DNA of 57,763 nt from Jimgerdemannia flammicorona (taxonomy: Eukaryota): contig RBNJ01000018.1 in NCBI GenBank assembly GCA_003990765.1, positions 1-57,763 of the forward strand, read 5' to 3'. Positions 11,905 to 53,466 of this stretch are shown here, in pieces. Under the pieces are notes generated by a model that saw only the letters and a program-made list of their open reading frames with translations, was not told where the DNA came from and did not search any database. The position numbers and the translations under genes are program-made. Each line of letters begins with the position of its first letter. Within the stretch, counting starts at the first letter, position 1.

Positions 11905-13482
11905 TATCATGTAGTAGTCACTGAGTCCTTCAAATATGCCAGATTCTCTTCAAGGTGTATCTCTTAGACTAACTCAAGTTTGTTATAAGCAAGTTCTTAT
12001 TGAAGTGTCTTCTCAAGATCTTATAGTCCTCAAACTTCTTATCTTTAAACTGTCTTGTTATCTCTTAGATTACTTACAAGGGATTATATATATTGTATTA
12101 AGAGGAACTGACTTTATTTCAGAAGAAATAAGAGGGGTATTTATATAAAATATAATTCAATGGTTGCTAAGATATAAAGCTAAATATAAATTCCAATAAC
12201 TAAAATAAAATACCAGGACAGGGAAAACTACTAAGTTCCAGTGTCAGTACTAATGGTTGCACAGGTTCATGATACTGGTATAATTTCAGTGATATAGGAA
12301 AATAGTACTGGAATAATTCTGAGTCACCTCAGAATGCTAGTGGTGAAACAGCTGTTATATAGAAAAAGAGTGCTGGCATTATTCAGTGTAACCAAGAGAC
12401 TTAGAGCAGAATATTCAAGATCATAGGGGCTTCATCCTCATCAGAGGTCAGGATGTCTTCAAAGGAGATGAGGTCTGCGAATGTCTCATCTGTCTTATCA
12501 TTATCATCATATAGGTCATGCATTTCATATATGTTACACAGGATGATATCATTGCTGATGATGGTATCATGTTTGGTGGCAGTGGGAACAAGGAGGTCTG
12601 GAGCTCTCCAGTTTATGAAATTCTCTTCCATGAAATAGGGGACAAATGTGGGGTCTTGGAGAGGCCTAATCTAGATACTTGGGCCTTGGAATACCAAGAT
12701 CAATCCTTACAGGAATTGGTCTGGGTTGTCCTGGAGGATGGGATGCCAGAAGTCTTCTACTTCATCACTATTGAGAGTAATAGTGAACTGGGCTTCTGTA
12801 GCCACTCTGGCTTCTAGTACATTGATATGGCAGGCTAACAGATCTCTGAAATCTGAGACTCTAACATACTCTAAGTTGGAGATTGACTATGGTGCATGCC
12901 TGAAGATCTGATGGATCTTCTTAGCTGTCCTTGCTTCACATATATCCATGAGAGTGGTATCTTGTAACTCTTGGGGGCTGGTCTGTAGGAACTCCTAGCA
13001 GAGGAGATTTCCTATCTCATACTCCTGCCACATTTGGAGGTATTCAGTAGCAATGGTGATCCTTGTTTCCATTTCACAGCAGTAGAGGATATGATGATAA
13101 GAGTCACCAGTATCCAGGTTGACACTAGGAGTCCTTTTTGAGTGAGTCCTCATGGCTCTTCTGATGTCTTAGAATATTCTTTCTTTAACTGAGGTGTCTT
13201 GGTGATTCCTTGACCTTGAGGTTTGGTGGGCAGCAGGCATTTTGTTTGTGATAAGTCTTTGAGCTATTTTGGAGTTGGTGGGTCTTATTGGTTGCTGCTA
13301 CTGTAGTTTCTTGATCCTTCTTTTATATTCCTCAAGATACCCATACTGTGGTCACAATGACTCACAGTTGGTCATAATTGCTCATCTTTTATACTATATG
13401 ATCTTCTTGTGCTCTGATCTGGTGACTTACAAGAAAAGGCTGTCTTCTGTACTGATGTCATCATTCTGGGGTCACTATTACA
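11905..13482 (-). mobile_element. Solo LTR of family A (copy A1) containing the accessory ORF
   Basis: Full-length match to 38188-39763; TGTAAT...ATGATA termini on minus; 4-bp TSD ATAT (11901-11904, 13483-13486); decayed ORF 13464->12401. Confidence 0.92.

Positions 13483-20810: not shown

Positions 20811-20811
<1 letters not shown>

Positions 20812-20892
<81 letters not shown>
20812..20892 (+). repeat. ~80-nt poly(T)
   Basis: Homopolymer between the two inverted paralogs. Confidence 0.9.
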
Positions 20893-20896
<4 letters not shown>

Positions 20897-21550: not shown

Positions 21551-22644
21551 GTTGGATTGGCTGAAAGGACAGGGTTAAGTGTAAAATGATGGATTCAAGT
21601 TGTTTCAGACTAGACTGGAAGGGTTTATGTTGGACATTTTTAGTCTGTGGACCCTTGATGATGTATGAATGGTCCTCTAGATTCAAAACTATGAATAGGG
21701 TAACCTTTAATTGCGGGGAAATAATGCCGTGACTGTTTAATAACAATAAATTAATCACACCCCGCTCAAAAACTGTCACGCCAAAATATGCGTGCTCAGG
21801 TGCCCTCAGCAGTAAGAGAACAGATTCGTTTATTAGACATTAATGATCTGGACAAAGGAGCTACAAATTGTTGGAGTGGCTTTTCAAAACCTTTCCCTGA
21901 AGACACTGCTCAATCAAAAACAATCTTGTGTCCAAATCATTGTTGGGCTTCATTTGGGTCAGGGCTTTCAGAGATTTGTATGTTGACAGAGGGTGGTTCA
22001 GTAGAGGTCCATTGGCATTTGATAGTCATAAGGATGGCTGTGGCAATCTTGTTCTTAGTTTGCTCTTAGTACTATTAATAGTTATTTATATTATAGAGAG
22101 TTATCTATATAATATTCAGAGATATTTATACTTATCTTGTCAGAGGTATGACTGTCTTTGGAAATTCTATTGAAATTTCTGTTATACTATATATTTATAT
22201 CAGACTACTGCTTCTATATTTAATAGGTGATTATCTTCTTTTTTTCAAATAATATCATATTTAGAGTAATTTTTTTATTTTACCAGATAGTACTAGATGA
22301 GCTTGGCAGCTTGTCTGAATTGTCAGTCCTTGTGATCTATAATATAATTGACTTTATATTCCAGTTCTTAATTGATAATAATCAGATCCAAAAATAGTAT
22401 AATTATTTCTTTAAAGATATTTGGGATATATAGCTAAAGTTAAAATATATAGAATACTAGATGAATTCTTCTGAGAATTACTAGAAGGTCTAATTTATAT
22501 GCAACAGGACTGTATTTCTTAAATAGTCCAATATAGTAGGGTCTGAGCTTCTTCTTTAGTTCTATTATCTAGAGTTAGATATTACATACTGAGTAATATA
22601 TATTTATCTTTTTTATAAGTAACTTCTCTTTTATTTTTGTCTAT

Positions 22645-24200
22645 TGTCACATAGTAGTTACTGAGTCCTTCAAATATGTCAGATTCTCTTCAAGGTATAT
22701 CTCTTAGACTAACCACAAGTTTGTTATAAGTAAGTTCTTATTGGAGTGTCTTTCCAAGATCTTATAGTCCTCAAACTTCTTATCTTTAAACTGTCTTGTT
22801 ATCTCTTAGATTGCTTGCAAGGAATTGAAGATAAGTGAACTTGACTGACTTTATTTCAAAGGAAATAAGAGAGGTATTTATATAAAATATAATTCAATGG
22901 TTGCTAAGTTATAAAGCTAAATATGAATTCCAATAACTAAATAAAATACTGGAACACAGAAAACTATAGTTGTCTATACAACTGGTTACATAAGTTTAGG
23001 ATGTCAGTAAAATTTTAATAGTACAGGAAAAGGATACTAGAAGAATTTCTAAGTTATATAAGATCAGAATGCCAGAAGAATAACAGTTATACAGGAAAAG
23101 GATACTGGTAGAATCTGATGTTACCAAGAACTTAAAGCAGAATATTCAGAACTATGGGGGCTTCATCCTCATCATTACTAAAGGAGATGAGATCTACAAA
23201 TATTTCATCCATTTCTCATACTTTGTGTATCTTGTATATGTTGTGCAGGATGATATCATTGCTGATGACATTATCATGTTCAGCAGCAGAGAGAACAAGG
23301 AGGTCTGAGGCTCTCTAATCTATGACATTCTCTTCTACAAAATAAGAAACAAATGTGGGGTCCTAGAGAGGTCTAACCTAGATACTGGGATCTTGGAATG
23401 CTGAGATCAATTGTTGTAGGAATTGATCAGAATTATTCTTGAAGATAGGATTCCAGAACTCTCCTATCTCATCACTATTGAGGGTGATAGTAGACTGGGC
23501 TTCTGTAGCCATCATGGCCTCTAGTGTATTGATGCAGAAAGCTGATAGTTTCTTGAAGTCTGAGATTCTAGTGTACTTCAAGTTGGGGATCAACAATAGT
23601 GCATATCTGAAGACTTGATGAATCTTCTTTACTATTCTTATTTCTCATATATCCATGGGAGTAGCATCTTATATTTCTTGGTAACTGGTCTGAGGGAATT
23701 TCCAGCAGAGGAGGTTTCCTATTTCATACTCCTGCTATATCCAGAGGTATTCAGTAGTGATGGTGATCCTTATTTCCATTTTATGGCAGTAGAGAATATA
23801 ATGATAGGGGTCATCAGTACCCAGGTTGACACTAGGAGTCCTTCTTGTATAGGTCCTCATAGCTCTTCTGATGTCTTGGAATATCCTATCCTAAACTGAG
23901 GGACTTTGGTAGTTCCTAGATCTTGAGGTTTGGTGAGTAGCAGACATTTTGTTTATAGTAAGTCTTTAAAACTATTTCTGTAAGCTTTGTTTGGATTGCT
24001 GCTACTGCAGTTCCTTGATCCTTCTTTTATATTTCTCGAGATGTCTGTCTTATAGTTACAATGACTCATAGTTGGTCATTATTACTTATCTTGTAGCTTG
24101 GATGAGTCATGCCATATGACCTTTCTGTGCTCCAATCTGGTAGCTTATAAGGAAAGACTGTCTTCTGTGCTGATGTCATTATTCTGAGGTCACTGTTACA
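22645..24200 (-). repeat. 3' LTR of A2 (contains decayed accessory ORF ~24182->23132)
   Basis: TGTAAC...GTGACA termini; ORF-track fragment LIPNLKYTRISDFKKLS. Confidence 0.92.
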
Positions 24201-24559
24201 TCTTTCTCCTGAATAAGGATCTTCTTGAATGTCCTTATTCATTGATCCAGTCCTGAAAAATTTGCTGATCCTATAACCTCTGGCAGGGAGTCAAAAAGTG
24301 ATGTTTATGGACTGGTGTCTTCTTTATATATTTTGGCATGATGGTAAAGAGTTGCTCCCTTCATATAGAGTAAGGGCCTGATTCTGATCTTGACCAATCA
24401 GTTGACAGTTTAAACTCCTCTGGCTTCAAAAGTCTCATGAATGAGTAGTTGCTAGTACTATATCTCTTAGAGAATGGTCCAGACAGATTACCTACTGGTC
24501 ATAAGATATGCTGTTATGATTCATAGACTAGAACCTCACAGGCAGTCATTATATTTTAC

Positions 24560-27500
24560 TTCTCTTATATAAATTCATGGTACTTCTTGAGTCTGTTCCT
24601 ATATACTATAGTAGGCAGTATGGTCTCTGAGAGTTTTCTAAGCCAGAAGGTAGTTCTCTTGATATCTTGTACATAGAAGGGTCCTTTCCATTTGGGCTCC
24701 AGTTTTCACAACCATGAGGCTTCTATTATATTTTGATACAGTAGGACCTTTTCTCCAATTTGAATGGGTTCTAGAGCCTTGTGATTCTTTTCTATATTCT
24801 TTCTTATCAGCACTTGTAACTTGATGATATAATCTTCAGCCTTCTTTCTGATTTGGTATAGTCTCTGGATTTCAAAGTCAATCTTTCTCCAAGTTAGATC
24901 TAGATTTGTGGCTGAGGTTCCATCAGAATCTTCTTCTCCAAAGAGCAGTTCTTTTGGAGTAAAGTGTGTACTCTGTAACTATATATCTCATAGGTAGAGA
25001 GGGCAGTTGAGAGATAGTTATCCCAATTGTCATATGTGTCTGAGATCTTCACCAGGATCTTCTTAAAGGTCTTGTTGGTTCTCTCTATCTGTCCATTTTC
25101 TTGAGGGTGGTATGCAGTGGTTGTGATATATTAAATCTTATATTTCTGATATATTATCTTGTGGAATCCATTGACAAATTCTGTGTTGTGGTCTGTAGTG
25201 ATTTGCCTTGGTGTCTTGTAGTGGCAGATGATTTCTCAGTACAGGAAGTCAGCTATAGAGAGCATTGACTTCTTGTAATACTCCTGCTTCTATCCATTTG
25301 GTAAAGAGGTCTACAATAACTATTATATAGTGGTTTCCTGATAGTATCACTGGTAGTGGTCCAATGATATCCATTGCAATGTGGTGGAAGGGGATAGGCT
25401 TAATTCTTAATGACCTGGATGCCTGGTCTTACTGATCTTATTTCTGTTTTTGGCACTTATCACACCCTTTGACAAATTGGTGCAGGTCTTTTTCTATCTT
25501 AGGCAACCATATAGTTCTTCTTGCTTTGCTATATATGTTGGTTCCTCCTATGTATCCTTGTTCATATACTTCCTTCATTACTTGATACTTCTTGTATTTA
25601 GATATTACAAGCTTTTCTCTTTTTCTGAGTATGGTGTTGTCTAGTTCAAATTATTTCCAAGTCTGATTGATAATGGTGATAGTTCAGGGTTCAAGATGGT
25701 TGAACATCTTCCATTGTCCAAGATAGCTGATTAATCTATAGTATAGCTCCTTATTTATATTGAATAGTCTTGATGAGAGTGTTTCAGAGTATCCTTGAGA
25801 GTGCATCAGCATTGGTATTGATTCTTCCTGAGTAGTACTTGATAGTACAGTCATACTCTTATAGTCTGTAGATCCATCTGGCATATATTCCTTTGGAGTT
25901 CAGAGTGTGGAATAGCTAGGTAAGAGCAGAATGGTCTGTTTGAATTATGAAGTATTTCCTGGCTAGATAGTAGTAGAACTTGTCTACTCCCCAAACTACT
26001 GCTAAGCATTTAAGCTTATATGACTTATAGTTCTGTTCTGCTCCATGAATATCTCAGCTTAGGAGATAATATATTTATATCTATCTTTCTTCTGAGCTAG
26101 GACTGCTCTAAGTCCTATAGCACTTGCATTTATCTGCAGGATGAACTTGAGGTTCCAATCTGGTCTTCTGAGAATAGATGCTTGGATCAATCTAGTCTTG
26201 AGTTCATTGAAGATTTCTTAGTATTTCTTGGTCCATTCAAATTTGGTCTCCTTCTTCAGTAGCTCATATAGAGGTGCTGCAATGTTAGAGTATCCTTTGA
26301 TAAATCTTCTGTAGTAGGAGGCCAGTCTAAGGAAGATGTAGACTTCTGTAGTTGTTCTGGGTCTTGGGTAGGCTGCAACAGCCTCAAGCATTATGGGATC
26401 TGTGTGAATTCCAGTCTAATTGATGAGGTGTTCTTTTTCTGAGCTGCAAACTTGCACTTCTTGGGCTTGATATAGAGGCCATACTCCTTGAGCTTCTTGA
26501 GGACTAGCTGTATATAGTTAATATGTTCCCATATAGTATTACTGAAGATAATCACATCATCAATATAGACAAAGAGCTATTTTCCAATCTCATTACTGAA
26601 GACTCTGTTCATCATTTGCTGAAAACTTACTGGGACATTGTATATTCCAAATGGTATTCACAGGTGGTATTAGGTGTGATGAAGGCTGATTTCTCACTAG
26701 CATCTTGAGTGAGACCAATCTGATGGAAGCCTGAGAACAGATCTAAGGTAGTATAGTATTTGGCTTTACTTCCAAGAGTGGTGAATATTTGGTAAGAGCT
26801 GCCTATCCTTCTTAGTGATTACATTGAGCTTCCTGTAATCAATGCAGAGTCTTGAGGCAAACTTTCCAGGTTTGCTTCCTTTCTTTGGGGTGAGGACAAT
26901 GGGTGAAGCTCAGGGGCTGATAACTTGCTTGATGATTCTAGCTTCTTCTATTTTCTTAAGTTCTGCTTGCAGCCATTCTCTGTAGGCAGGTGGTATAGGT
27001 CTGGCTTTCTGGTAGATAGGCTTGATATTACCAGTGTCAACTTCATAGTAGTACTTAGGTTCTTGATTATAGATATCTCTGAAGTCTGTAGCAAGTACTT
27101 CTTTGTTCTGGTGCAGGATCTTGAGAAGTTGTTTTTCCAGAGGAAAGTTTTCTCCAATAGTATATATGTGCTTGTTCTGATCCTTGTCTTTCTTATGCTC
27201 AAGTTCAGTAATCTTGGTGGCAGCATAGGCTTCTCTTTCAGTAGATCCAAAGTCTTGTTCTTCTCTCTTAATCTTGATGAGTTCAATGGCTTCAGTGATC
27301 TTAGGCTTCTTGACTTCATGAATCAGCATCTGACCAATCCTGTCATACTTCTTGGCTTTGAATAGAGTGGTGGAGTTGTGATTCCTGACTATAAGGAAGA
27401 TCTTGCCAGTGTAATCAGAGTTAATTACTCCTCCTTCAACTGAGATTTCACTTTTGGCCAGACTGCTCCTGGTCTTGATAATTCTGGCATGGTTTTCTGG

Positions 27501-29810
27501 CAATCTGACTCCAATTCCAGTACCAAGTAGAGTAGTGGTCTGTGGTTTAAGGATAGCATCTTGAATACTGATAAGGTCTATTTCTATGGCTCCTTCAGTC
27601 TTGTATTCTGGGATCTTGGCTTCAGAGTAAAACTTCTTAACCTTGAGAGTGATGTCTGGTTCTTATTCCTCCTCATCATTGCTATCAGCTTGAAGCTCTG
27701 GGGGCTGGTCATCTTCTTCAGCTTTCCTTTTTGCTTCAGCAGCTTCTTACTCATGTTTTTGTTGGCAAATTTTCCTGACTTCACTGATACAGGACCAGCA
27801 GTCATTCAGGTGTTCAGAGCAGTACATCCTAGTACCATGGGGGCATCTTTCTTGAGGGGCATAGATATTGATAATCTTGTTGTATATACCACTGCTCATC
27901 TGTGAGCTTAGGTGTCTTGCTCTTATTCTTATACACTGAGTGTATGAAGACTTCTGTGTCTTCTTCATCTCCTTCCTCCATGTCTGATAGTACTCCTTTG
28001 TGGATATTGATAGAGACTTGTACCTTTCTTCCTCTATAGTTGGTCTGTATCTTCTAAACATTGAGGTCAATGACAGCCTTGGCCTTGTAAAGCCATTGGT
28101 TGCTAATGAGGATGTCATAGTTGGTGGTGCTTATAACAATCATATCTACTGGAATAGTAGCTCCTCCTATCTTAATGGAGTCTTCTTAGATCTTACCTAA
28201 GGGGGTAGCTCATGTACCATCTGCTATAATATAGACTATCTTGATAGACTCTTCAATGTCCTAGCCTAGGTGGTCAATTGCCTTCTTGCTTATAAGACAT
28301 CCTCTAGCACTGGTATCAATGATAGCATCAAAGATATAATCTTCAATCTGACATAGAGCATAGGCTGATGTCTTACACTGATCTTCAGATTCTTCACCTG
28401 AGTCTTTGGATTCTTCTTGTGCATTGTGAGCTTCTATAATTTTGTACTCTTGATTCTTGACAGTGGTTGCAAGTCCTACTCTCAACTGCTGTCTGAAGGC
28501 AGAGACTTCAGCTAGTTGTCCAAAAGTAGTATTGACCTTCTGTTCCTTGAGGTTCTTGTAGATATCATACTGGTAGATCTTGGTCTTATACAGCTTCTGT
28601 TCTTTCTTGCTTTCACTTTCTCCTGAGACTAGAGTAGTGCCTTCAATAATTTGGCAGACAGCTTTATCTAACTCCATGTCTTGGTCAATCTCCTCAGGTT
28701 GGGTCTTGCTTTAAATAGTAATAGCTGAAGTCTTCTTTGGTCTTTCCACTGGCTTGTTGTTGCCCTTCTTATCATAGAGCTTAGACCAGGTTCTGGTATC
28801 TTCAGTGACAGAATAAAATTCAGACTTCTCATAGTATTCTTCATCATCAATATTACCAATCTCCTCAATGACTACTGTATTAGTTTATTCTCTGGTTCTA
28901 GTAGCATTACTTAGTTGGGCTTTGCATCTTGTTTTGATCATACAACTCTTTGTATAGTGGCCTTCTTCTCTACATCTGAAGTATATGATATTGCATTCTT
29001 TTATAGTAACTGCAAATCTCAGTACTGGTCTCCTATTGGTGCTTCAGACTTCTCTAACAATATCACCAAGGTATGCAGTCATCTCATCAAACTGCTTGAT
29101 AAGTTCCTCTACTGGATCAGCTTTGGCTGTCTTAGGGGTAGGTGGGAATGGTTGTCTGTTTACAACTATAGTAGGTATAATACTGATTGGCTTTGATGGC
29201 TCTATCTTAATACTAGTTATTTTCTCTATTGAGTGTTCAGTAGGATGTCTGGTAGTCTAATATCTCTGTACAAAGACCACTTTTCGGTCAATAGTCAGAG
29301 TAGCTGGGATAGATCAGATTTCTAGGGTAATTTTAGAGTGAACTCCTTTCAGGAAGGTTGAATCAGCTATTTGGTCCTTAAGGCAGTCATCATAGCCAGC
29401 CAAGACAATCTGGTGGCAGATTCAGGTGTAGAATAAGTTGGGATCTTCACTAAGTCTCTGGCAGATAGTGTTGAGTTAATCCTTGAGAGCTTACTTGATC
29501 TCTTCAGTATAGTATATAGTTCTGAGGAAGGTCTTCATGTTGGCAAGTTTGGCTGCACCAGCATTAGCAATGATGACTATATTAAACTTATCTCTGGCAG
29601 GTCCTCTGAGGCTGACAGGTATAAGAGCCAATTATGCATCCACACTAAGGGCTTGTATGGCAGTAAATTGTTCAAAGTCTTCAATAAAGATCATAATTGA
29701 CTCTTTAGTAGTATATCTATAAAATGTAGAGGGACATATTTTTATCTTGTTTTGAATTCTTACAGGGGTGACTCTTGTAGTCAGAGTAGTTGTTGTGGTG
29801 GTTGTTCATT
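24560..29810 (-). pseudogene. pol: Family A gag-pol (gag, knuckle, PR, dUTPase, RT, RNase H, integrase; no chromodomain)
   Basis: YFRCREEGHYTKSC knuckle ~28950; IIDTSARG protease ~28310; RSSLA..EGGVINSDYTG..RIGQ dUTPase; LDLFSGFHQI, VYIDDVII (RT); IAMDIIGPL, TAYHPQENG, WKGPF (IN). Confidence 0.92.
27230..27640 (-). pseudogene. dut: dUTPase domain of family A, between PR and RT
   Basis: Motifs GAIEIDL, TRSSLA, GGVINSDYTG, RIGQML, REEQDFGST. Confidence 0.88.
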
Positions 29811-29865
29811 TTTCAACTTGAAAGTGAGATATTCATCTTGAATCACCAGCCAATAGATACCAAGT

Positions 29866-31425
29866 TGTCATATAATAGTCGCTGAGTTCTTCAAATATAT
29901 CAGATTCTCTTCAAGATATATCTCTTAGACTAACCACAAGTTTGTTATAAGCAAGTTCTTATTGGAGTGCCTTCCCAAGGTCTTATAGTTCTCAAAATTC
30001 TTATCTTTAAACTGTCTTATTATCTCTTAGATTGCTTGTAAGAAATTGAGAGTAAGTGAACTTGACTGACTTTATTTCAAAGGAAATAAGAGAGGTATTT
30101 ATACAAAATATAATTCAATGGTTGCTAAGTTATAAAGCTAAATATAAATTCCAATAACCAAATAAAATACTAGAACACAGAAAACTATAATTGTCTGTAT
30201 AAATAGTCACATAAGTTTAGGATATCAGTAGAATTTTAGTGGTATAGGAAAAGGATACCAGAAGAATTTCTGGGTTATACAAGATCAGAATGCCAGAAGA
30301 ATAACAGTTATACAGGAAAAGGATGCTGGTAGAATCTGGTATTACCAAGAACTTAAAGCAAAATATTCAGAACTATGGAGGATTCATTCTTATCATCACT
30401 GAAGGAGATGAGATCTACAAATATTTCATCTGTTTCTTGTACTTTGTGCATCTCATATATGTTGTGTGGGATGACATCATTGCTGATGATGCTATCACAT
30501 TCAGCAGCAGGGAGAATAAGGAGGTCTGGGACTCTCCAATCTATGACATTCTTTTCTACAAAATAAGAAACAAATGTGAGGTCCTGGAGAGGTCTAATCT
30601 GGATGCTGGGACCTTGAAATACTGAGATCCATTGTTGTAGAAATTGATCAGAATTATCCTTGAGGATAGGATTCCAGAACTCTCCTACCTCATCACTGTT
30701 GAGGGTGATAGTAGACTGGGCTTTTGTGGCCACTATGGCCTCCAGTCCATTAGTGCAGTAAGCTGATAGTTCCTTGAAGTCTGAGATCCTAGTATACTCT
30801 AAGTTGGGGATTGACCATGGTGCATGTCTGAAGATCTGATGAATCTTCTTTACTGTTCTTATTTCTTATACATTTATGAGAGTTGTATCTTGTATTTCTT
30901 GGTAACTAGTCTGAGAGAATTCCAGACAGAGGAGGTTTCCTATTTCATACTCCTGCCACATCCAGATGCATTCAGTAGTAATAGTGATCCTTGTTTCTAT
31001 TTTATAGCAGTAGAGAATATAATGATAGGAGTCACCAGTACTCAGATTGATACTAGGAGTCCTGCTTATATGGGTCCTCATATATAGCCCTTCTGATGTC
31101 TTGGAACATCCTATTCTAGACTGAGGGGCCTTAGTGATTCCTGGACCTTGAGGTTTGGTGAGTGACAGGTATTTTGTTTATAGTAAGTCTTTAGAACTAT
31201 TTCTATAAGTTTTGTTTAGATTGCTGCTACTGTAGTTTCTTGATCCTTCTTTTATATTCTTCAAGATATCTGTCTTATAGTCACAATGACTCATAGTTGA
31301 TCATCATTGCTCATCTTGTAGTCTGGATGAGTCATGCCATATAATCTTCCTATACTCTGATCTGGTGGCTTGTAAGGAAATACTATCTTCTGTGCTGATG
31401 TCATTATTCTGAGGTTACCATTATA
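29866..31425 (-). repeat. 5' LTR of A2 (accessory ORF fragments 31081-30866 and 30733-30353)
   Basis: Colinear with 22645-24200; differences mostly transitions. Confidence 0.92.
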
Positions 31426-33684: not shown

Positions 33685-35301
33685 ATAATATCCAATCTTG
33701 TTTGAAATGCAAGCTTTGAGATATCTTCTTCTTAATGTAAATTTAGTAATATCTAAAAGTAAGATTAATAAGTAAAAAAGTCTTAGTATTATACATTTAG
33801 TCAAGAATATTATTAATCTATAGGAGTATATATATATTAGTTCTTAATAGAGATCTTGTTAAGTATTATATATATTATAACAGTGATCTCAGAATGGTGA
33901 CATCATTACAGAAGACAGCCTTTCCTTACAAGCTACCAGATTAGAGTATAAGAAGATCATATGGCATGACTTATTCAGGCTACAAGATGAGTAATGATGA
34001 TAAATCATAAGTTATGATGGCCACAAGATAGATATCTCAAGGAATATAAAAGAAGAACCAGGAAACTGCAGTAGTAGCAACTCAAACAAGACTCACAAAA
34101 TCCTGAAATAGTTTGAAAGACTCACTATAAACAAAATATCTATTACTTGCCAAATCTTAAGATCTAGAAACTACTAAAGCTTCTCAGTCTAAGAAAGAAT
34201 ATTCTAAGACATTTAGAGAGCTATGAGAAACTACACCAGAAGGATTCCTAGTCTCAATCTGGGTACTGGTGACTCTTACCACTTTATCCTCTATTACCAT
34301 AAAATGAAGACAAAGATCACTACTGCTACTAAATGCCTCTAGATGTGACAGGAATATTAAATAGGAAACCTTTTCTGCTGAGAATTCCCTTAGACCAATC
34401 TCCAAGAGATATAAGATGTTACCCCTATAGATGTATATAAATTGAGAGTAGCCAAAAAGATCCATCAGATCTTCAGGCATATACCTTAATCAATCCCCAA
34501 CTTAGAGTATACCAGAGTCTCAGACTTCAAGGAATTGTCAGCCCACTACACAGATGCACTAGAGGCCATAGTGGCCATAGAAGCCCAATTCATTATCACT
34601 CTCAAAAGTAATAAGGTAGAAGAGTTCTAGAATCCCATTCTCTAGAATAATCTAGATCAATTTCTGCAAAGATTGATCTCAGTATTCCAAGACCTTAGTA
34701 TTCAGATCAGACCCTCTCAAGATTCCACCTTTGTCTCCTACTTTGTAGAGGAAAACATCACAGATTGGAGAGCCCCTGATCTCCTTACCACTGCTACCAA
34801 ATAGGATAATATTATCAGTAATGATATCATCCCATTAATCAACCTGTACAAAATATATGAAATAAATAAAATACTTACAGAAACATTCACTGATCTTATT
34901 TTCTTTGAAGACATTCTGTCCCCAACCTCTAGCCTTAATGATAGTGATGAAAATAAAGCCCCCAGAATTTTGAACATTTTACTCTAATTTATTTATATAA
35001 CTATTTGTTTGAATACTCAAATATTCTGGCATTCTGACCTCTTATAACTGTCAGAAATTATTCTAATATTCTGATCTTATATAACCAATTGTATAAGCAC
35101 TTGAATTTGTACTTACAACCTGAAGTTTCCTATGTTTAAATATCTTATTTAGTTATTAGATTTTATATTTAGCTTTATATCTTAGCAACTATTAAATTAT
35201 AGTCTGTATAAATACCCCTGTCATTTTCTTTAAAATAAAGTCAGTATTAAAAAATTCAAGCATATAAGTATCCAACTACTCAAGAGCACAAAAGTTCTAG
35301 T

Positions 35302-37363: not shown

Positions 37364-38205
37364 ACTTGGTAGTAGTAGTTTACAATCTAATTTCACTTCA
37401 AGATACTTCCTCACTCTGCTATAAACCTCTATGAGAATTCCTATAAGTTAGTATAAAGCCCAACCTCTGAACTGGAATTTATCCCAAACTATCTGACAAT
37501 CTGGAGAAAATTGAATCTGATATATAATGACAATTTGACCTCCACACCTGCAACAAGTGAGACAGACTTTATCTGCAAAAAGAAATACTCTAACTAAATC
37601 AGCAGATAGGCAAAACTCAATATACTAAACTTCTTGCTCTATACCCTGCTAGTCAAGATGAAGAAGGTCTTATAGAAGTCTTTTTTACTTTTCTCAATAA
37701 GAGTTTTGTTAGCTCTACAAATCCAAGTGATCTAGGATAACCAGCAATCAATTTTCTAGCCTTAGTTCCTCATAAAGCCTGAGCCTCCATAACCAAGTAG
37801 CTCAACTCTACTGACTATTACTATACCAGGACTAAGACTGTCTTATACTACCATTTTCAGAATTGCAAGGCCTGTCATATTCTTAAAGAAGAAGCCAGAG
37901 AAACCCTTTGTCAACAACCTGATCCCAAACCAGAAGCAGGTTCAGCTTCAGCCCTACCTGAAGCTGAGATTTATATAGAACTAGATCAAACTCTTAAATT
38001 AAGTCCATCTAAAATCTGTTATACAACTAATACTATCTACTTTAATGCTGAACAAACCAAATTACACAGGGACCAAAGTGAAGAGGAGGAGGAGTATCTC
38101 AGTGAATTTGATCCCAGATACACTACTGAAGGAGACACACCTCTATCAGGACAAAATATACCTATACAGCAACAGATAGTTATCTATTATAACGGTGACC
38201 CCAGA

Positions 38206-39279
38206 ATGATGACATCAGCACAGGAGACAGCCTTTCCTTGCAAGCCACCAGATCGAAGCACAAAAAAGATCATATGGCATATGAGATGAGCAATGATGAC
38301 CAACTGTGAGTCATTGTGACCACAGCACAAGCATCCTGAAGAATATAAAAGAAGGATCAAGGAACCACAGTAGCAGCAACCAACAAGAACCACCAATCCC
38401 AAAATAGCTCAAAGACTTACCACAAACGAAATGCCTGCTGCCTGCCAAACCTCAAGGTCAAGGAACCACCAAGGTATCTCAGTCAAGGAAAGGATGTTCC
38501 AAGACATCAGAAGAGCCATGGGGACCCGCTCAAGAAGGACTCCTAGTGTCAACCTGGGAACTGCAGACCCCTATCACTTTATGCTCTACCACCGTGAAAT
38601 GGAAACAAGGATCACCATTGCCACCGAATGCCTCCAAATGTGGCAGGAGTACAAAATAGGAAACCTCCTCTGCCGGGAGTTCCCAGAAGCCAGCACCCAA
38701 GAGCTACAAGATGCCACCCCCATGGACCTACGTGAAATAAGGACAGCTAAGAAGATCCATCAGATCTTCAGGCATGCACCATGGTCGATCCCCAACTTGG
38801 AGTATGTTAGAGTCTCAGACTTCAGAGACCTGTCATCCTGCCGTATCAATGCACTAGAAGCCAGGGTAGCTACAGAAGCCTAGTCCACCATCACCCTCAA
38901 TAGCGAAGAAGTAGAAGACTTCTGGCACCCCATCCTTCAGGACAACCCAGACCAATTCCTGCAAGGATTGATCTCAGTATTCCAAGGCCCAAGCATCTGG
39001 GTTAGATCTCCCCAAGACCCCACATTTGTTCCCTATTTTGTGGAAGAGAACCTCATAGACTGGAGAGCTCCAGATCTCCTTGTTCCCGATTTTCCCGCCA
39101 CTGCCAAACGTGATGACGTCATCGGCGATGACATCATCCCGCGCGACATCAAAGCACGCGAAAATGACGAAGTATGCAAGACGCGCGGCCTGCATGATGA
39201 ATTCACGGATCTCATCTCCTTCAGTGATGATGATGATGATGAGGATGAAGCCCCCATGATCCTGAACTTTTTGCTCTAA
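38206..39279 (+). pseudogene. LTR-A accessory ORF, 357 codons, acidic C-terminal tail, four in-frame stops
   Basis: ATG 38206 and ORF-track pieces 38431-38883 and 38968-39279 are all in one frame. Stops are TGA, TGA, TAG, TAG (from CGA/CAG); TAG 38881 is CAG/CAA in other copies. Confidence 0.85.
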
Positions 39280-39286
39280 GTTCTTT

Positions 39287-39388
39287 GTTACACTGGATAA
39301 TGCCAGCACCGGTATTCTCATGTAACACTGGATAATGCCAGCACCAGTATTCTCATGTAACACTGGATAATGCCAGCACCGGTATTCT
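39287..39388 (+). repeat. Three tandem 35-bp repeats in U3 of LTR-A5
   Basis: GTAACACTGGATAATGCCAGCACCGGTATTCTCAT units at 39287, 39322, 39357. Confidence 0.9.
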
Positions 39389-39522
39389 GAGGTGATGCGA
39401 AATTGTTCCAGTACTGGTATTTTGATATGACACTAAATAATACCAGCCTTGGAACTTAGTAGTTTTAGTTATTGGAGTTTATATTTAGCTTTATATCTTA
39501 GCAACCATTGAATTATATTTTG

Positions 39523-39554
39523 TATAAATACCCCTCTTATTTCCTCGAAATAAA
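39523..39554 (+). promoter_or_regulatory. Putative TATA box and AATAAA signal of LTR-A
   Basis: TATAAATA ~39523 and AATAAA ~39549, conserved at the same place in all five LTR-A copies. Confidence 0.6.
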
Positions 39555-39905
39555 GTCAGTTCCTCTCAGTGCAATATACACAATTCCTTGCAAGCAATCT
39601 AAGAGATAACAAGACAGTTTAAAGATAAGAAGTTTGAGGACTATAAGACCTTGGGAAGGCACTCCAATAAGAACTTGCTTATAACAAACTTGTAGTTAGT
39701 CTAAGAGATATACCTTGAAGAGAATCTGGTGTATTTGAAGGACTCAGCGACCACTACATGACACTATCAAGCTCTTACTCCAGATCCACAACAGTTACTC
39801 CAGCAACTTACACAGACTCAAAGAACACCACCACACTCTGCACTAGTATCTCAAGTTGTATCAATAACTCTATTACTAGTAGTTCAACTGCCTCCAGTAA
39901 ACAAC

Positions 39906-45040: not shown

Positions 45041-45482
45041 AAACCAGAACACTCCAGTGCCTACCAGTCTATACTATATAATATCTCTTCTGAATATCAA
45101 GTACCCTTATAATTATCATAAATAAAATTAAGAATTTAGCAAGTTAAGATAAAAGAATACTGACTCTTTAGAAAAATAGCAAAACTAAAAGCCAAGCTAT
45201 TCTCCCCATACCACTGGTGAGAAACAAGACATAGATATTTAAGAAGATTCCTTAGAGAAAATTCTCCAGCAATGAATAATGTCTGAATTACTTCCAGCAC
45301 ACAGTATTAAATACATGACCCTTTAATATATAAATTCAATATATTAGACAACTGAACTATGAGCATGCCACTTCTGAGAAAAATAGATACTACTGGACTT
45401 TTGACAATCTAAATAGTGTAATAATACTAGAACAAAATTAGAAAATCTTGATGAGGACATCAAAAGCTAAGAAGGAGAGAGT

Positions 45483-47533: not shown

Positions 47534-47789
47534 TCAGTCCTCTACTCAATTCTATGTAAGTAAATCCAAGAGACAACAGAACAGTTTAAAGATAAGAAGT
47601 TTAAGGACTATAAGATCTTGAGAAGGCACTCTAATAGAACTTGCTTATAAGAAACTTGTAGTTAGTCTAAGGGATATGTACACCTTAAAGAGAATCTGAT
47701 ATACTTAGAGAACTTAGTGCTCACTATGTAACAACTTAGTATCTATTAGCTGGTAATACTATTAGAATCTCTCACTTCCAAGCTAAATA

Positions 47790-50700
47790 ATGAACAACTA
47801 CTATAACAACTACCCTGACTACAAGAGTCACCCTCTGCAAGAATTCAAAACAAGATAGAAATGCATCTTATCACATTTTATAGATTTATTACTAAAGAGT
47901 CAATCTTGACCTTTATTGAAGACTTTAAACAATTTGCCACTATATGAGCTCTCAACATTGAAGCACAATTGGCCCTCCTACCTATCAGCCTCAGAGGATC
48001 TGCCAGAGACAAGTTCAATGCAGCCACCATTTCTGACACTGGTGTAGTCAAACTTACCAATATGAAGAACTTCCTCAGAACTATGTATATATTATACTGA
48101 AGAGATTAAGCAAGCTTTCAAAGATCAACTCAACACTATCTGCCAAGGACTCAATAAAGACTCCAACTTATTCTATACTTAAATCTATCATCAGATTGTC
48201 TTGGCTGGCAATGATAATATTCTCAAGGAATAGATAGCTGATTCAATCTTTTTAAAAGGAGTCTGCATTGAAATTACCCTAGTAATCTGATCTACTCTAG
48301 CTACTCTGATCCTTGATCAGAAAGTGGTCTTTGCTCAGAGATATTGGACTGCTAGACATCCTGCTGAATACTCAATAAAAAGGATAACTGTTATCAAAAT
48401 AGAGCCACTAAAGCTAACTGGTATCATATCTACTATAGCCCTCAATAGACAACTATCCCCACCTACCCCCAAGATGGCCAAAGACAACCTAGTAGAGAAA
48501 CTCACCCAGCAGTTTGCCAAGATGACTGCACACCTTGGTAATATTGTTAGAGAAGTACAAAGTGCCAACAAGAGACCAGTACAGAGGTTTGCAGCTACTA
48601 TAGAGGAATGTACCATCACATACTTCAAATATGGAGAAGAAGACCACTATGTAAAGAATTGCATAACTGAAACAAGGCACAAAGCTCAATCAAGTAATAT
48701 ACCAGAACCAGAGAATAAACCAATGTAGTAATCATTGAGGAGATTGGTGACACTGATGATGAAGAATACTATAAAGAGTCTGAATTCTACTCTGTTACTG
48801 AAGGTACCAGAATCCAGTCCAAGCCCTATAATAAGAAGGGCAACAGCAAGCCAGTTAGAAGATCAAAAAAGATCCCAACCATTATTATTCAAAGTAAGAC
48901 CCAACCTGAGGAGATTGATCAAGATATGGAGATAGATAAAGCTGTCTGCTAAATTATTAAAGACACTACTCCAGTCTCAGGAGAAAGTGAAAGCAAGAAA
49001 GAACAGAAGCTGTACAAGACCAAGATCTACCAGTATGATATCTATAAGGATCTCAAGGAACAGAAGGTCAATGCTACTTTTGGACAACTAATAGAAGTCC
49101 CCACCTTTAGACAACAGTTGAGAGCAGAACTTACAACTACTGTTAAGAACCAAGAGTACAAGATCATAGAAGCTCACAATGTACAAGAAGATGAACAAGA
49201 AGACATAGGTAAAGAATCTGAAGATTAGTCCAAGACCTCAGCCTATACTCATATCAGATTGAAGATTGTATTTTTGATGCTATCATTGATACTAGTGCTG
49301 AAGGATGTCTCATAAGTAAGAAGACAATTGACCACCTAGGCTGGGATATTGAAGAATCTACCAAAATAGTCTATATTATAGCAGATAGTAAATGAGCTAC
49401 CCCTCTAGACAAGATCCAAGAAGTTCTCATCAAGATCAGAGGAGCTACTATTTCAGTAGATATGATTGTTACAAGTACTACTAACTATAACATCCTTATT
49501 GGTAACTAATGGCTTCACAAAGCCAAGACCATCATTGATCTCAATGTCCAGAAGATGCAGATCAACTATAGAGAAAGAAAGGTATGAGTCTCTATCAATG
49601 TCCACAAAGGAATACTACCAGATATGGAGAAAGGAGATAAAGAGGATACAGAAGTCTTCATACACTCAGTATATAAGAATAAGAGCAAGAAAATCAATCT
49701 CACAGATGAGCAGTAGTACTATAAGATCATCAATGGCTATGCTCCTTAAGGAAGATGCCCCCACAGTACTAGGATATACTGCTCCAAACACCTAAATAAC
49801 TGCTGGTCCTATATCAGTGAAGTCAAAAAAATACATCAATAAAGATATGAGCAAGAAGCAACTGAAGCAAAAAAGGAAGCTAAAGAAGTTGACCAGCCCT
49901 CTGAGCTTCAAGCTGATGGTGATAATAAGGAGGAATAAGAACCAGACATCACTCTCAAGATTAAGAAGTTTTACCCTGAAGCCAAAATATCAGAATACAA
50001 GACTGAAGGAGCTGTAGGAATGGACCTTACTAGTATTCAAGATACTATCCTTGAACCACAGACCACTACTCTACTTGATACTGGAATTGAAGTCAAGTTA
50101 CCAGAGAACTATACCAGAATTATCAAGACTAGGAGCAGTCTGGCTAGGAGTAAAATCTCAGTTAAAGGAGGAGTTATTGACTCTAATTATACTGGTGAGA
50201 TCTTCTTTATGGTCAGAAATTACAACTCTACCACTCTATTCAAAGTCAAGAAGTATGACAGGATTGGCCAGATGCTGATCTATGAAGTTAAGAAGCCTAA
50301 GATCACTGAAGCCATTGAACTCATCAAGACTAAGAGAGGAAAACAAGGCTTTAGATCTACTGGAAGAGAAGCCTATGCTGCTATCAAGATTACCAAACTC
50401 AAGTACAAGAAAGTCAAGAACCAGAACAAGTACACATATACCATTGGAGAAAACTTTCCCCTAGAAGAACAACTTCTTAAGATTCTGCACCAAAATGAAG
50501 GAGTACTTACTACAGACTTTAGGGACATTCACAACTAAGAACCCAAATACTACTACAAAGTTGACACTGGTAATACTAAGCCCATCTACCAGAAAGCCAG
50601 ACCCATACCACCTGCCTATAGAGAATGGCTGTGAGCAGAACTCAAAGAAATGAAAGAAGTTGGTATTATTAAGCAAACTATTAATCTCTGGGCTTCACTC

Positions 50701-53060
50701 ATTGTTCTTACTCCAAAGAAAGGAAGCAAGCCTGGAGAGTTTGCCCCAAGACTCTATATTAATTACAGAAAGCTCAATGTAATCACCAAGAAAGATAGAC
50801 AGCCCTTGCCAAATATTCAAGAAATCCTTATCACTCTTAGAAGTAAAGCCAAATACTACACCACCTTGGATCTGTTCTCAGGCTTCCATCAGATTGGTCT
50901 CACTCAAGATACCAGTGAGAAATCAGCTTTTATTACATCTGATACTATCTATGTCTACCTATGAATGCCAATTGGAATATGCAATACTCCAGCAAGTTTT
51001 CAGTAAATGATAAATAGAGTCTTCAGTAATGAAATTAAAAAAAAGCTCTTTGTCTATATTGATAATATGATCATCTTCAGCAATACTATGGGAATATATC
51101 AACCACATACAGCTAGCCTTCAAGAAGCTCAAGGAGTATGGCCTCTACATCATGCCCAAGAAGTATACATTTATAGCTTAAGAAATTACCTACCTAGGAC
51201 ATATCATCAGCCAGACTGAAATTCATATGGACCCTATGAATATTGAGGCCATTGCAGTCTACCCAAGATCCAGAACAACTATAGAAGTCTATGCCTTCCT
51301 TGGACTGGCCTCCTACTACAGAAGATTCATCAAAGGATATTCTAATATTACAGTACCTATCTATGAGCTATTGAAGAAGGAGATCAAATTCAAATAGACT
51401 AAGGAATGTCAAGTAACCTTCAATAAACTTAAGATCAGATTGACCCAAGCACCCATCCTCAGAAGACCAGATTAGAACCTAGAGTTCATCCTGTAGATAG
51501 ATACAAGTATTATAGGACTTGGAGCAGTACTAGCTCAGAAGAAAGATGGACACAAATATCTCATCTCCTATGTAAGCCAAGATATCTATAGAGTAGAATA
51601 GAACTATGAGCCATGTAAGCTTAAATGCTTAGCATAGTCTAGGCAGTAGACAAGTTCCACTACTATCTAGCTGGGAAATACTTTACTATTAAAACAGACC
51701 ATTCTGCTCTTGCCTGGCTATTCCACACTCTGAATTCCAAAGGAATATATACCAGATAGATCTACAGACTGCAAGAGTATAACTGTACTGTTAAATACTG
51801 CTCAGGAAGAACTAATACCAATACTGATGCACTTTCAAGAACACCCCAAAACACCCCCATCAAGACTATTTAACATAAATAAGAAGCTATACTATGGATT
51901 AATCAGCTACCTTAGACAGTGGAAGATGCTCAACTATCTTAAACCCTGGACTATTACCATCATCAACTAGACTTGGAAACAATTTGAACTAGATAACACT
52001 ATACTCAGGAAAAGAGGAAAGCTTGGCATACTTAAATATAAGAAGTATTAAGTAATAAAGGAAGTATATGAACAAGGATACCTAGAAGGAACCAATATAT
52101 ATGACAAGGTAAGAAGAACTATATAGTGGTCTAAGATAAAAGAAGACTTATTAAAGAGTATGATAAGTACCAAAAACAGAAATAAGATCAGCAAGACCAG
52201 ATACCCAGATTATTAAGAATTGAATCTATCTCCTTTCACCACATTGCAATAGACATTATTGGACTACTATCAGAAAATTACTATATTATAGTTATTGTAG
52301 ATCTCTTTACCAAATAGATAAAAGCAGGAGTATTACAAGAAGCTAATGCTCTCTCTATTGTTGACTTCCTGTACCAAGAAATCATCTGCCACTATAAGAT
52401 ACTAAGGCAAATCACCACAGACCACAGTACAGAATTTGTCAACAGATTCTATGAGATAATGTATCAGAAATACAAAATTCAGCATATCAAGACTATCACA
52501 TATTACTTTTAAGACAATGGACAGACAGAAAGAACAAACAAGACCCTTAAGAAAATCCTGACTAAGATCTCAGATATATATGAGAATTGGAATAACTATC
52601 TCTCAAATATCCTCTCCATTCTATGAGATATATATATGGTCACAGAGTACATACTTTACCCCAAGAGAACTACTCTTTGGAGAAAAAGATTCTGATAGAA
52701 TCTCAGCTACAAATCTAGACCTAACTTGGTGATAAATTGACTCAGAAATCCAGAGACTACACCAAATCAGGAAGAAGATAGAAGATTACATCATCAAGTC
52801 ACAAGTACTAATAAGAAAGAATGCAGAAAATAATTACAAGACCCTAGAACTCATTCAAATCAGAGAAAAAGTTCTACTATATCAAAATATAGTAGAAGTC
52901 TTATAGTTATGAAAACTAGAGCCCAAATAGGAAGGACCCTTCTATATATAAGATATAAAAAGAACTATCTTCTGGCTTAGAAAACTCTCAGAAACTATAC
53001 TGCCTACTATAGTATACAGGAATAGACTCAAGAAGTACTATAAATCTATATAAGAGAAGT
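47790..53060 (+). pseudogene. pol: Family A gag-pol of copy A4 (PR-dUTPase-RT-RH-IN)
   Basis: IIDTSAEG ~49290; dUTPase ORF 50020-50538 (GKQGFRST); RT ORF 50650-50964; colinear with A2. Confidence 0.9.
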
Positions 53061-53466
53061 AAAATATAATGACCATCTATGAGATTCTAGTCTGTAAATC
53101 ATAATAGTATATTCTATAACTAGTAGGTAATCTGTCTGGACTATTCTCTAAAGGATACAATACTAGTAACTACTCATCTGTGAGACTTTCAAAGCTCGAG
53201 GAGTTCAAACTGTCAACTGATTGGTCAAGATCAGAATCAGGCCCTTGCTCTATATAAAGAGAGCTACTTTTCACCATTATACCAAAATATATAAGAAAGA
53301 TATCAGTCTATAAACACCACTTTTTGACCCCCTGCCAGAGGTTATGAGATCAGAAAATTTTCAGACTGAACCAATGAATAAGGACATTTAAGAGAAGATT
53401 CTTATTTAAGAAGAAAATGTAACAGTGATCTCAGAATGATAATATCATTATAGGAGACAGCCTTTC

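Follow-up and report, generated by a model that had tools for sequence, protein, structure and literature searches.

Evidence for a protein gene under past purifying selection inside the LTR of a dUTPase-bearing Ty3/Gypsy family

In a 57,763-nt stretch of Jimgerdemannia flammicorona DNA, hereafter the window, we found a 1576-bp LTR at 38188-39763 that holds the remains of a protein gene. Our results suggest that this is probably the LTR of an old dUTPase-bearing Ty3/Gypsy family with a complete accessory gene, placed in U3 and equipped with a putative promoter of its own. Because the gene lies wholly inside the LTR, it is doubled in every full element and retained in solo LTRs. Comparative evidence at the codon level indicates that purifying selection acted on the gene during the diversification of the family. 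All five copies of the LTR gene in the window are pseudogenes.

The LTR has ends of the TG..CA type, the first TG having decayed to TA, and in the family the ends read TGTAAC...ATGACA, decayed in some copies. The original prediction of an LTR of about 1.57 kb at this position, with five copies starting at 11905, 22645, 29866, 33876 and 38188, was correct, and all five were recovered. The borders are independently backed by contigs of three other runs, which leave the window sequence at 38190/38195 and 39756-39770. The copies and their gene remnants are as follows.

38188..39763, + strand: solo LTR, 1576 bp, the least decayed of the five
11905..13482, - strand: solo LTR; gene at 13240-12404 with five in-frame stops
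22645..24200, - strand: 3' LTR of the full element; gene at 23947-23135 with eight in-frame stops
29866..31425, - strand: 5' LTR of the full element; gene at 31172-30356, its start codon decayed, with a frameshift from a 4-nt insertion and three stops in the reference frame
33876..35245, + strand: start of the 5' LTR of a second element (first 1373 nt), cut by a nested element; gene at 34136-34984 with 14 stops
47543..47733, + strand: the rest (~190 nt) of that 5' LTR, followed by PBS-like sequence

The two parts of the 33876 copy are separated by the 12.3-kb nested element. No family interior, PBS or PPT adjoins the copies at 38188 and 11905, which are therefore solo LTRs; two of the five copies had been predicted to be solo and to carry target-site duplications. 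CTAT (4 bp) does stand on both sides of the 38188 LTR, and one contig of run X3 has the unoccupied site with a single CTAT, but the 11905 flanks read ATATAT and are uninformative in this respect. Decay of the full element's flanks prevents a target-site duplication from being read there. The prediction that solo-LTR formation leaves the whole gene body behind was confirmed, the gene being present in both LTRs of the element at 22645-31425 and in the two solo LTRs.

The full element (22645-31425, - strand) has LTRs that are 88% identical to each other, and a second element has a similar interior. Their parts are listed here.

24201..29865, - strand: interior of the full element, with gag, PR, dUTPase, RT, RNase H and integrase, all decayed
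28185..28057, - strand: PR
27662..26913, - strand: dUTPase
26818..26394, - strand: RT
26217..25919, - strand: RNase H
25650..24903, - strand: integrase
47734..53466, + strand: second element's interior, which shares 83% identity with the full element and includes dUTPase (49939-50535) and RT (50635-50961)
53408..53417, + strand: PPT of the second element, followed by the first ~49 nt of its 3' LTR (53418-53466), which a third element cuts

Pfam matches between 28185 and 24903 on the - strand follow the order RVP_2, dUTPase, RVT_1, RT_RNaseH(_2), Integrase_H2C2 and rve, and are fragmentary because of decay. The pol order, PR-RT-RNase H-integrase with the integrase last, is that of Ty3/Gypsy elements (Metaviridae). 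PBS and PPT flank the LTRs in two elements: in the full element, PBS-like TGGTATCTATTGGCTGG lies 3-4 nt past the 5' LTR and the PPT is AGGAGAAAGA at 24210-24201; the second element retains a decayed form of the PBS-like sequence, and AGGAGAAAGA and AAGAAGAAAA adjoin the 3' LTRs. A paralogue of the target of the full element, with the site unoccupied, lies at 2263-4510. The window contains no tRNA and no Rfam match, and a search with the integrase fragment gave no relatives at E<=1e-20.

The gene in the least decayed copy is smaller than had been predicted.

38431..39279, + strand: LTR-borne gene, ATG to TAA, 282 codons, with one in-frame stop at 38881-38883

Its ATG stands 244 nt into the LTR, 484 nt separate its end from the LTR end, and it takes up 54% of the LTR and not two-thirds of it. 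The open frame of 357 codons (38206-39279) that was thought to start 18 nt inside the LTR had to be abandoned: it is interrupted by four stops (codons 28, 38, 56 and 226), three of them within the first 56 codons, and its first 75 codons are noncoding in every copy, with gap runs of 1, 14, 2, 5, 7 and 2 nt. The predicted acidic tail is present, and the P-x-x-L-N-x-L-L ending is common to all five copies. In the 38188 gene, frame 0 holds two stops including the terminal one and the other two frames hold 9 and 20; in the noncoding 2.07-kb LTRs of a neighbouring element no long frame occurs, and each frame contains 29-65 stops. The other two Gypsy families of the window lack the gene, and tblastn of the window matches the five copies only. 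An antisense ORF at 38974-39432 (152 aa) was rejected, the antisense frames of an intact homologue, L001, being only 63-84 aa long.

The stop at 38881 makes the 38188 gene copy a pseudogene, and the number of in-frame stops elsewhere ranges from three to 14 as listed above. Across the LTR copies, 470 columns vary by transition versus 97 by transversion. Transition hypermutation (C>T / G>A), with complete loss of CpG, inactivated the five copies; the CpG count is 1, 1, 1 and 0 in four of them versus 32 in the 38188 copy, which is the youngest and has a single stop.

That the open frame arose by chance or is a relic in a long LTR, with no selected product, is a very improbable explanation. It would account for the damage to 5/5 window copies and for the lack of known domain matches, and the predicted structural model that is available, of homologue P0003, is poor (pLDDT 0.35). 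It is strongly disfavoured by the comparison with L001, which gave a dN/dS of 0.24 over 280 codons with saturated synonymous sites (dS ~1.4-2); dN/dS was 0.13 in the core (codons 60-215) and 0.55 in the tail. Insertions and deletions between copies also keep the frame, a check that the original prediction had called for: 15/19 gap runs inside the ORF are multiples of three versus 9/34 outside (Fisher p=4e-4), and the ORF lengths are 849, 840, 816, 820 and 852 nt, four of the five being multiples of three. Variable sites are ordered by codon position 3>1>2, with 93/62/133 variable columns at positions 1/2/3 for transitions (p=2e-6) and 26/16/31 for transversions (p=0.09). Furthermore, no in-frame stop is common to the five copies, and intact relatives of full length, 37-77% identical, retain the start (MP..) and the end (P..LNF). 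The ORF is no better conserved than its surroundings when all columns are counted, its transversion density being 0.089 versus 0.055-0.057 in the noncoding LTR ends. Altogether, these results argue for a protein gene that was maintained by selection before its window copies decayed.

Homologues of the LTR protein are rare. At E<=0.01 there were six among 332 candidates, and at E<=0.001 the family has five representatives among 1.84 billion clusters, full-length and with identities down to 34-37%. The intact homologues, 247-342 aa long, come from public metagenome data and are gene-caller output, so that they are pre-selected as open. L001, a 1345-nt metagenome contig with an intact ORF of 323 codons, has the same plan of first TATA box, ATG context, second TATA box and AATAAA as the window LTRs; it is the sole homologue that was examined as DNA, so the LTR context covers the window family and L001. 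The search of metagenome contigs yielded one locus from 33 pattern matches. Viral contigs gave five tblastn-positive stretches, probably the window's own copies, and no loci; none of eight candidates among genome contigs gave a relative; and a scan with a 16-nt motif returned 20 loci, none related by tblastn or blastn. No fused or longer forms of the protein occurred among 8000 scored candidates, which is weak evidence.

Signals that may control the gene and the element lie on both sides of the ORF.

38344..38351, + strand: TATA box 1 (TATAAAAG), 80 nt upstream of the ORF ATG, putative promoter of the LTR gene
39286..39388, + strand: 35-nt tandem repeat, 2.9 units, between the stop codon and TATA box 2, enhancer-like
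39523..39530 and 39549..39554, + strand: TATA box 2 (TATAAATA) and AATAAA, the presumed genomic-RNA promoter and LTR poly(A) signal

As predicted, the frame lies upstream of the TATA/AATAAA pair, and it ends 244 nt before TATAAATA. The gene is likely to be in U3, since it precedes the tandem repeats and the conserved TATAAATA and AATAAA that would serve the genomic RNA. The 16-nt core of TATA box 2, TGTATAAATACCCCTC, is identical at 16/16 positions in L001, and conservation among window copies is highest in the part of the LTR that starts ~130 nt before TATA box 2 and runs to the LTR terminus. The number of 35-nt repeats varies in other copies, and joints that omit 70 and 171 nt are seen in other runs.

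TATA box 1 equals TATA box 2 in conservation: TATAAAAG occurs in 5/5 copies, and L001 and four of the five share an identical, longer GAATATAAAAG. There is no ATG between TATA box 1 and the start codon in any of the six sequences, versus 5-9 upstream of TATA box 1, although this lack is weak evidence because composition predicts only 0.46 per copy. Taken together, the nearness of TATA box 1 to the ATG, the absence of an intervening ATG and the identity in L001 point to an own promoter that would be active in any LTR. The promoter at 38344 would drive the LTR gene and give a monocistronic mRNA of ~1.2 kb whose 3' end is set by the poly(A) signal of the same LTR; with both signals in place, every LTR (5', 3' and solo alike) would form a transcription unit complete in itself.

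The conservation of TATA box 1 and the lack of an upstream ATG behind it would also fit an alternative that we consider unlikely, in which TATA box 1 is the genomic-RNA promoter, U3 measures only ~180 nt and the gene lies in an R of ~1.2 kb. On this view the genomic RNA would carry the gene as its first cistron and again at its 3' end, and premature polyadenylation in the 5' LTR would yield a short mRNA for the protein. Here the segment TGTATAAATA...AATAAA would serve as a bipartite poly(A) signal, not as a promoter, and yeast-type poly(A) signals do consist of UGUAUA/UAUAUA plus an A-rich element. LTRs with an R of ~2 kb and a U3 of ~240 nt are described for rice Retrosat2 (PMC3485330). However, this arrangement would place gag behind an 849-nt cistron on the genomic RNA, the tandem repeats just upstream of TATA box 2 resemble a U3 enhancer, and the best-conserved block fits a promoter followed by R and U5.

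A second alternative, which follows the original prediction of expression from the 3' LTR and which we regard as quite improbable, keeps the gene in U3 but denies it a promoter of its own, so that it would be expressed from the 3' LTR only, as in MMTV sag, either through a spliced or subgenomic RNA derived from the genomic one or by means of an interior promoter. The position of the gene upstream of TATA box 2 and AATAAA suits this explanation, precedents are given by MMTV sag and lentiviral nef (PMC2664473), and the bdelloid ORF3s are reportedly expressed from spliced messages (PMC5408684). On the other hand, the 5-9 ATGs from the LTR start to TATA box 1 would burden any mRNA entering the LTR from upstream unless a splice acceptor follows them, and on reading the sequence we saw no acceptor with a pyrimidine tract ahead of the ATG. 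Furthermore, the conservation of TATA box 1 would be left unexplained, and solo LTRs would not express the gene. A gene in U3 with its own promoter remains our preferred explanation.

The protein consists of a basic N-terminus, a conserved core of ~150 residues (codons ~60-215) and a variable acidic tail that ends in LNFLL and carries two conserved hydrophobic motifs, F-x-D-L-I-x-F and P-x-x-L-N-F. The pI of the first 60 residues is ~11 (10.7-11.8) in three of five homologues, versus 7.9 for P0010 and 6.5 for P0021, whose N-terminus is shorter; that of the remainder is 4.1-5.7 in the five. Their maximal Kyte-Doolittle hydropathy over 19 residues is 0.62-0.97, with no hydrophobic N-terminus and no membrane segment. 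A profile search of PDB sequences gave no matches at E<=10, Pfam gave none for the window protein (the best E among 16 family members was 0.026), and NCBIfam and PHROGs returned nothing significant for the LTR protein. A structure search of the Atlas with P0003 reached a best feature score of 0.83 with TM <=0.33, which is chance level. An origin of the protein from gag was rejected (hhalign probabilities 0.1% and 0.04%). On a tentative and rather doubtful view, the product might be a soluble nuclear regulator or adaptor that serves the element, either as an LTR transactivator or as an antagonist of host silencing or hypermutation.

It is possible, although we hold this with limited confidence, that the LTR is a self-contained mobile cassette, with a selected gene of 282 codons placed between a TATA promoter of its own and the LTR poly(A) signal, and that the product is an element-serving regulator. 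Each insertion would then bring two expressed copies, of which LTR-LTR recombination would leave one, and the product could be a Bet/Vif-like antagonist of host repeat defence or an LTR transactivator. The presence of a dUTPase in the element and the extensive C>T hypermutation of these repeats might fit an antagonist of repeat defence. If the LTR is such a cassette, this would be the first selected protein gene wholly inside a Ty3/Gypsy LTR. Retrotransposon LTRs are treated as noncoding control regions and are masked by annotation pipelines, so that a selected LTR gene, which would copy twice per insertion and spread via solo LTRs, would be systematically missed. Expression from a promoter of its own would make it a counterpart, among retrotransposons, of sag, nef and bet, and it would offer a route to study the contest between elements and host repeat defence in TE-inflated genomes. 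Given five representatives among the clusters searched and no known domain, any function would be new.

A gene inside an LTR is an arrangement known from a few retroviruses, and we did not find it in print for Ty3/Gypsy elements; our literature search, which had most subscription journals and Repbase outside its scope, found no retrotransposon with a protein gene inside the LTR. The closest analogue is MMTV sag. MMTV encodes a dUTPase next to its protease, and so does the window element, whose pairing of dUTPase and LTR gene would be convergent with the MMTV genome architecture; unlike MMTV, however, it is a Ty3/Gypsy retrotransposon without env. Sag is a type II membrane glycoprotein, whereas the LTR protein has no membrane segment, and the conserved TATA box directly upstream of the window ORF suggests an LTR-internal promoter, in which it also differs from sag. 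With regard to Sag, Nef and Bet, the LTR protein has no sequence match to PDB sequences or Pfam families. In MMTV, sag is a sense ORF of ~300 codons in an LTR of ~1.3 kb, ahead of the TATA and poly(A) signals of that LTR (PMC2664473); similarly, the window LTR of 1.58 kb holds a sense ORF of 282 codons upstream of such signals.

Among retrotransposons, the additional ORFs (aORFs) of Ty3/Gypsy elements, e.g., Ogre ORF1, Retrosat2/RIRE ORF0, bdelloid ORF3 and Boty brtn, are comparable in being lineage-restricted extra genes that evolve faster than pol and whose function is unknown or accessory (PMC3485330, PMC5408684, PMC6431247, PMC7264820). These aORFs are described as internal, upstream of gag or downstream of pol and in sense or antisense orientation (PMC7264820, PMC6431247), whereas the window gene lies in the LTR and occurs also in solo LTRs. 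The phrases "within the LTR", "in the LTR" and "inside the LTR" have no occurrences in the plant aORF review (PMC7264820), and bdelloid LTRs measure 159-551 bp (PMC5408684). A dUTPase between PR and RT is reported for fungal and rotifer Ty3/Gypsy elements (PMC6431247). The window dUTPase has this same position, as in the dUTPase-bearing Ty3/Gypsy elements of fungi, rotifers and planarians. A coding LTR is absent from the descriptions of such elements that were consulted.

Foamy viruses drive bel/bet from an internal promoter that is separate from the LTR promoter, and the same logic is proposed here for the window LTR gene. Like nef and bel/bet, the window gene would be accessory and non-structural. 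Lentiviral nef is an accessory gene at the 3' end that lies partly within U3 (PMC2664473). The nef and bel/bet ORFs start upstream of the LTR and only overlap it, whereas the window ORF starts 244 nt inside and ends 484 nt before the LTR end, and is therefore complete in a solo LTR.

Copies of the repeat at 38188-39763, which measures 1576 bp, were located in the window by blastn.

Blastn matches to the repeat
11907-13475, - strand, copy, 82% identity
22645-24198, - strand, copy, 70-77% identity over most of its length
29866-31425, - strand, copy, 70-77% identity over most of its length
33876-35245, + strand, copy, 70-77% identity over most of its length
47543-47726 and 53420-53466, two fragments

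The termini are of the TG...CA type (TGTAAC...ATGACA), the initial TG of the 38188 copy now being TA by decay. Repeat-matching contigs from three other public sequencing runs part from the window at 38190/38195 and 39756-39770, and because they diverge there, the boundaries of the repeat are those of a mobile unit. The blastn matches, the ends and the flank divergence thus bear out the original prediction of a 1.57-kb LTR at 38188 with five copies in the window. When the family interior, PBS and PPT were sought beside copies 38188 and 11905, none was found there, and these two copies are therefore solo LTRs. The 38188 solo LTR is located within a nested element with CTAT at each flank, and one contig from one of the three runs (X3) joins its flanks with a single CTAT, as expected of an unoccupied site.

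In the full element, LTRs at 29866-31425 and 22645-24200 (88% identical) enclose a 5.7-kb interior on the - strand, with PBS-like TGGTATCTATTGGCTGG 3-4 nt beyond the 5' LTR and polypurine tract AGGAGAAAGA adjoining the 3' LTR. Its target has an uninterrupted paralogue (2263-2972/2975-4510): an older repeat, unbroken at 2263-4510 and split by the full element at 21939-22641 and 31431-32980, provides the unoccupied-site control. Further old repeat pairs lie at 1420-1883/16888-17348 and 11401-11706/33034-33346. A second element (+ strand; interior 47734-53417, 83% identical) likewise has a PBS-like sequence and a polypurine tract; its 5' LTR is the 33876 copy, which is split by a 12.3-kb nested element (35246-47542), the LTR remainder restarting at 47543. 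The domain order by Pfam is protease, dUTPase, reverse transcriptase, RNase H, integrase zinc-binding domain and integrase core. The LTR belongs to a Ty3/Gypsy element carrying dUTPase between PR and RT, an arrangement given for fungal and rotifer elements in PMC6431247.

The nested element, which splits the 33876 copy and contains the 38188 solo LTR, is itself Ty3/Gypsy, with its own dUTPase (41080-41460) and RT (42233-43291). Its 2.07-kb LTRs (35298-37363 and 45482-47536, 84% alike) are without a long frame, having 29-65 stops in each of the six frames; a 52-nt filler occupies 35246-35297. A third Ty3/Gypsy element at 53468-57763, the least decayed (ORFs ≤263 aa), interrupts a 3' LTR after ~49 nt and reads CCHC, dUTPase (54949-55344), PR (55402-), RT, RNase H and integrase. 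Its dUTPase therefore precedes the protease, whereas that of the LTR-gene family follows it; dUTPase is present in all three Gypsy families of the window. Copia-type pol scraps (Pfam SH3_retrovirus, Pol_BBD) occupy 6880-8019 (-). At 9000-11000 and 19000-22000, G+C rises to 0.40-0.46 and the longest ORF reaches 173 aa; these stretches match nothing in Pfam and are unrelated to any of the three Gypsy families. Since the whole window yielded neither a tRNA nor an Rfam match, and no ORF >263 aa, it is a transposon graveyard.

The LTR had been described as two-thirds coding, with an open frame of 357 codons from 18 nt inside it. Our results did not uphold this: the frame at 38206-39279 is interrupted by stops at codons 28, 38, 56 and 226, and its first 75 codons contain stops in all copies and gap runs of 1, 14, 2, 5, 7 and 2 nt. 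The coding-like frame runs from ATG 38431 to TAA 39279, that is, 282 codons starting 244 nt into the LTR and covering 54% of it. Where the 38188 copy has its single in-frame stop (38881-38883), the other four copies carry a sense codon.

All five window copies are pseudogenes, with 1, 5, 8, 3 and 14 stops in the reference frame (38188, 11905, 22645, 29866 and 33876, respectively); the 29866 copy also has a frameshift and has lost its start codon. No stop is common to all five. Columns that differ among copies comprise 470 transitions vs 97 transversions, and 32 CpGs are left in the 38188 copy vs 1, 1, 1 and 0 in the other four. It follows that the family was inactivated by C>T/G>A hypermutation with complete CpG loss, and that 38188 is the youngest copy. 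C/T variation affects 87% of CpG-bearing columns vs 34-60% in other contexts. The C>T process in the host is repeat-directed or methylation-driven.

The ORF measures 849, 840, 816, 820 and 852 nt in the five copies; all but one of these lengths are divisible by three, and the exception is a decayed copy with an insertion of 4 nt. Indels between copies keep the frame: among distinct gap runs, 15/19 inside the ORF are multiples of three vs 9/34 outside (Fisher p=4e-4), and three of the four non-triplet runs inside belong to a single place of ambiguous alignment where the net length is again divisible by three. Variable columns rank 3>1>2 by codon position, with transitions at 93/62/133 (p=2e-6) and transversions at 26/16/31 (p=0.09) for positions 1/2/3. 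A word-indexed protein search returned 6 proteins with E≤0.01 from 332 candidates, and an exhaustive search 5 representatives with E≤0.001 from 1.84 billion. The homologue clusters comprise 20 sequences, from contigs 0.5-4.8 kb long, that are either without a name or called 'hypothetical protein'; being gene-caller output, they are pre-selected for openness. Full-length homologues of 271, 323 and 342 aa (77%, 55% and 38% identity, respectively) have the start (MP...) and a C-terminal P-x-x-L-N-F in common. The only relative readable as DNA is L001, a metagenome contig of 1345 nt whose 323-codon ORF is intact. Against L001, dN/dS was 0.24 across 280 codons; by segment it was 0.33 for the first 60 codons, 0.13 for codons 60-215 and 0.55 for the tail, with synonymous sites close to saturation (dS 1.4-2). 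Conservation over all columns was not better in the ORF than in the non-coding LTR ends. Taken together, these sequence comparisons identify the frame as a protein gene shaped by purifying selection during family diversification, and we consider it very likely that the LTRs of this family contain a selected gene.

The LTR is laid out as follows.

Features of the 38188 LTR
LTR start segment, ~155 nt, with 7 ATGs
38344, first TATA TATAAAAG, then 79 nt without any ATG, then the ORF
39286-39388, tandem repeat, 35 nt x2.9, 3' of the ORF
39523 and 39549, TATAAATA and AATAAA in a well conserved block, ~210 nt from the LTR end

L001 has the same layout and a conserved ATG context; GAATATAAAAG is identical there at 11/11 bases and TGTATAAATACCCCTC, followed by AATAAA, at 16/16, at a distance where neutral sites are saturated. 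Across 39286-39447, the copy number of the 35/70-nt tandem repeat differs among related copies in other runs, where contig joints skip 70 and 171 nt. The second TATA with its upstream repeats would drive transcription of the genomic RNA, with AATAAA as the poly(A) signal, which would place the gene in U3; we read it so, in line with the original prediction. The first TATA is best explained as the putative promoter of the gene itself. Between it and the start codon, 6/6 sequences have 0 ATGs, with 5-9 upstream of the TATA, although this is weak evidence, composition predicting just 0.46 ATGs per copy. One rival is a long-R model, with the first TATA as the genomic-RNA promoter; an R of 2 kb is given for rice Retrosat2 in PMC3485330. 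The other rival is a sag-type route, with the gene expressed via spliced RNA from the 3' LTR. If the first TATA is the gene's own promoter, the mRNA would be ~1.2 kb, beginning and ending inside one LTR, and any LTR, solo included, would be a complete transcription unit. Expression is probably not limited to the 3' LTR, and the whole mechanism seems to us somewhat favored. The claim that a gene is left behind in solo LTRs held, the LTR-borne gene being kept in them.

The acidic tail and the ending common to all copies were confirmed; the tail, of variable length, is 20-30% Asp+Glu and contains two hydrophobic motifs that are conserved. For the window protein and the two full-length relatives nearest to it, the pI of the first 60 residues is ~11, and for homologues P0010 and P0021 it is 7.9 and 6.5; the remainder has a pI of 4.1-5.7. 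There is no membrane segment (maximum 19-residue hydropathy <1.0). Searches of Pfam, PDB sequences, NCBIfam, PHROGs and the protein Atlas produced nothing significant, and a search for longer, fused forms turned up none, a result of little weight. Compared with the element's gag, the protein was unrelated. From charge layout and context only, the product might be an element-serving nuclear regulator or adaptor (either transactivating or counteracting silencing or hypermutation by the host), a guess that we regard as rather doubtful.

Long ORFs in LTRs are described in PMC2664473 for MMTV sag (1.3-kb LTR), bovine foamy virus and primate lentivirus nef (extending into U3). For LTR retrotransposons, additional ORFs are placed in the internal region by PMC6431247, PMC3485330, PMC5408684 and PMC7264820 (Ogre ORF1, Retrosat2 ORF0, bdelloid ORF3, Boty brtn), and 'within', 'in' or 'inside the LTR' never occurs in the plant aORF review. 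In the part of the literature that was covered, no retrotransposon was found whose LTR encloses a protein gene. The LTR-borne gene is like MMTV sag and nef in genome position. However, it does not appear to belong to either family: no sequence homology to them was found in Pfam or PDB sequences, its product has no membrane anchor, and the whole gene is contained in the LTR of a Ty3/Gypsy element that lacks env.
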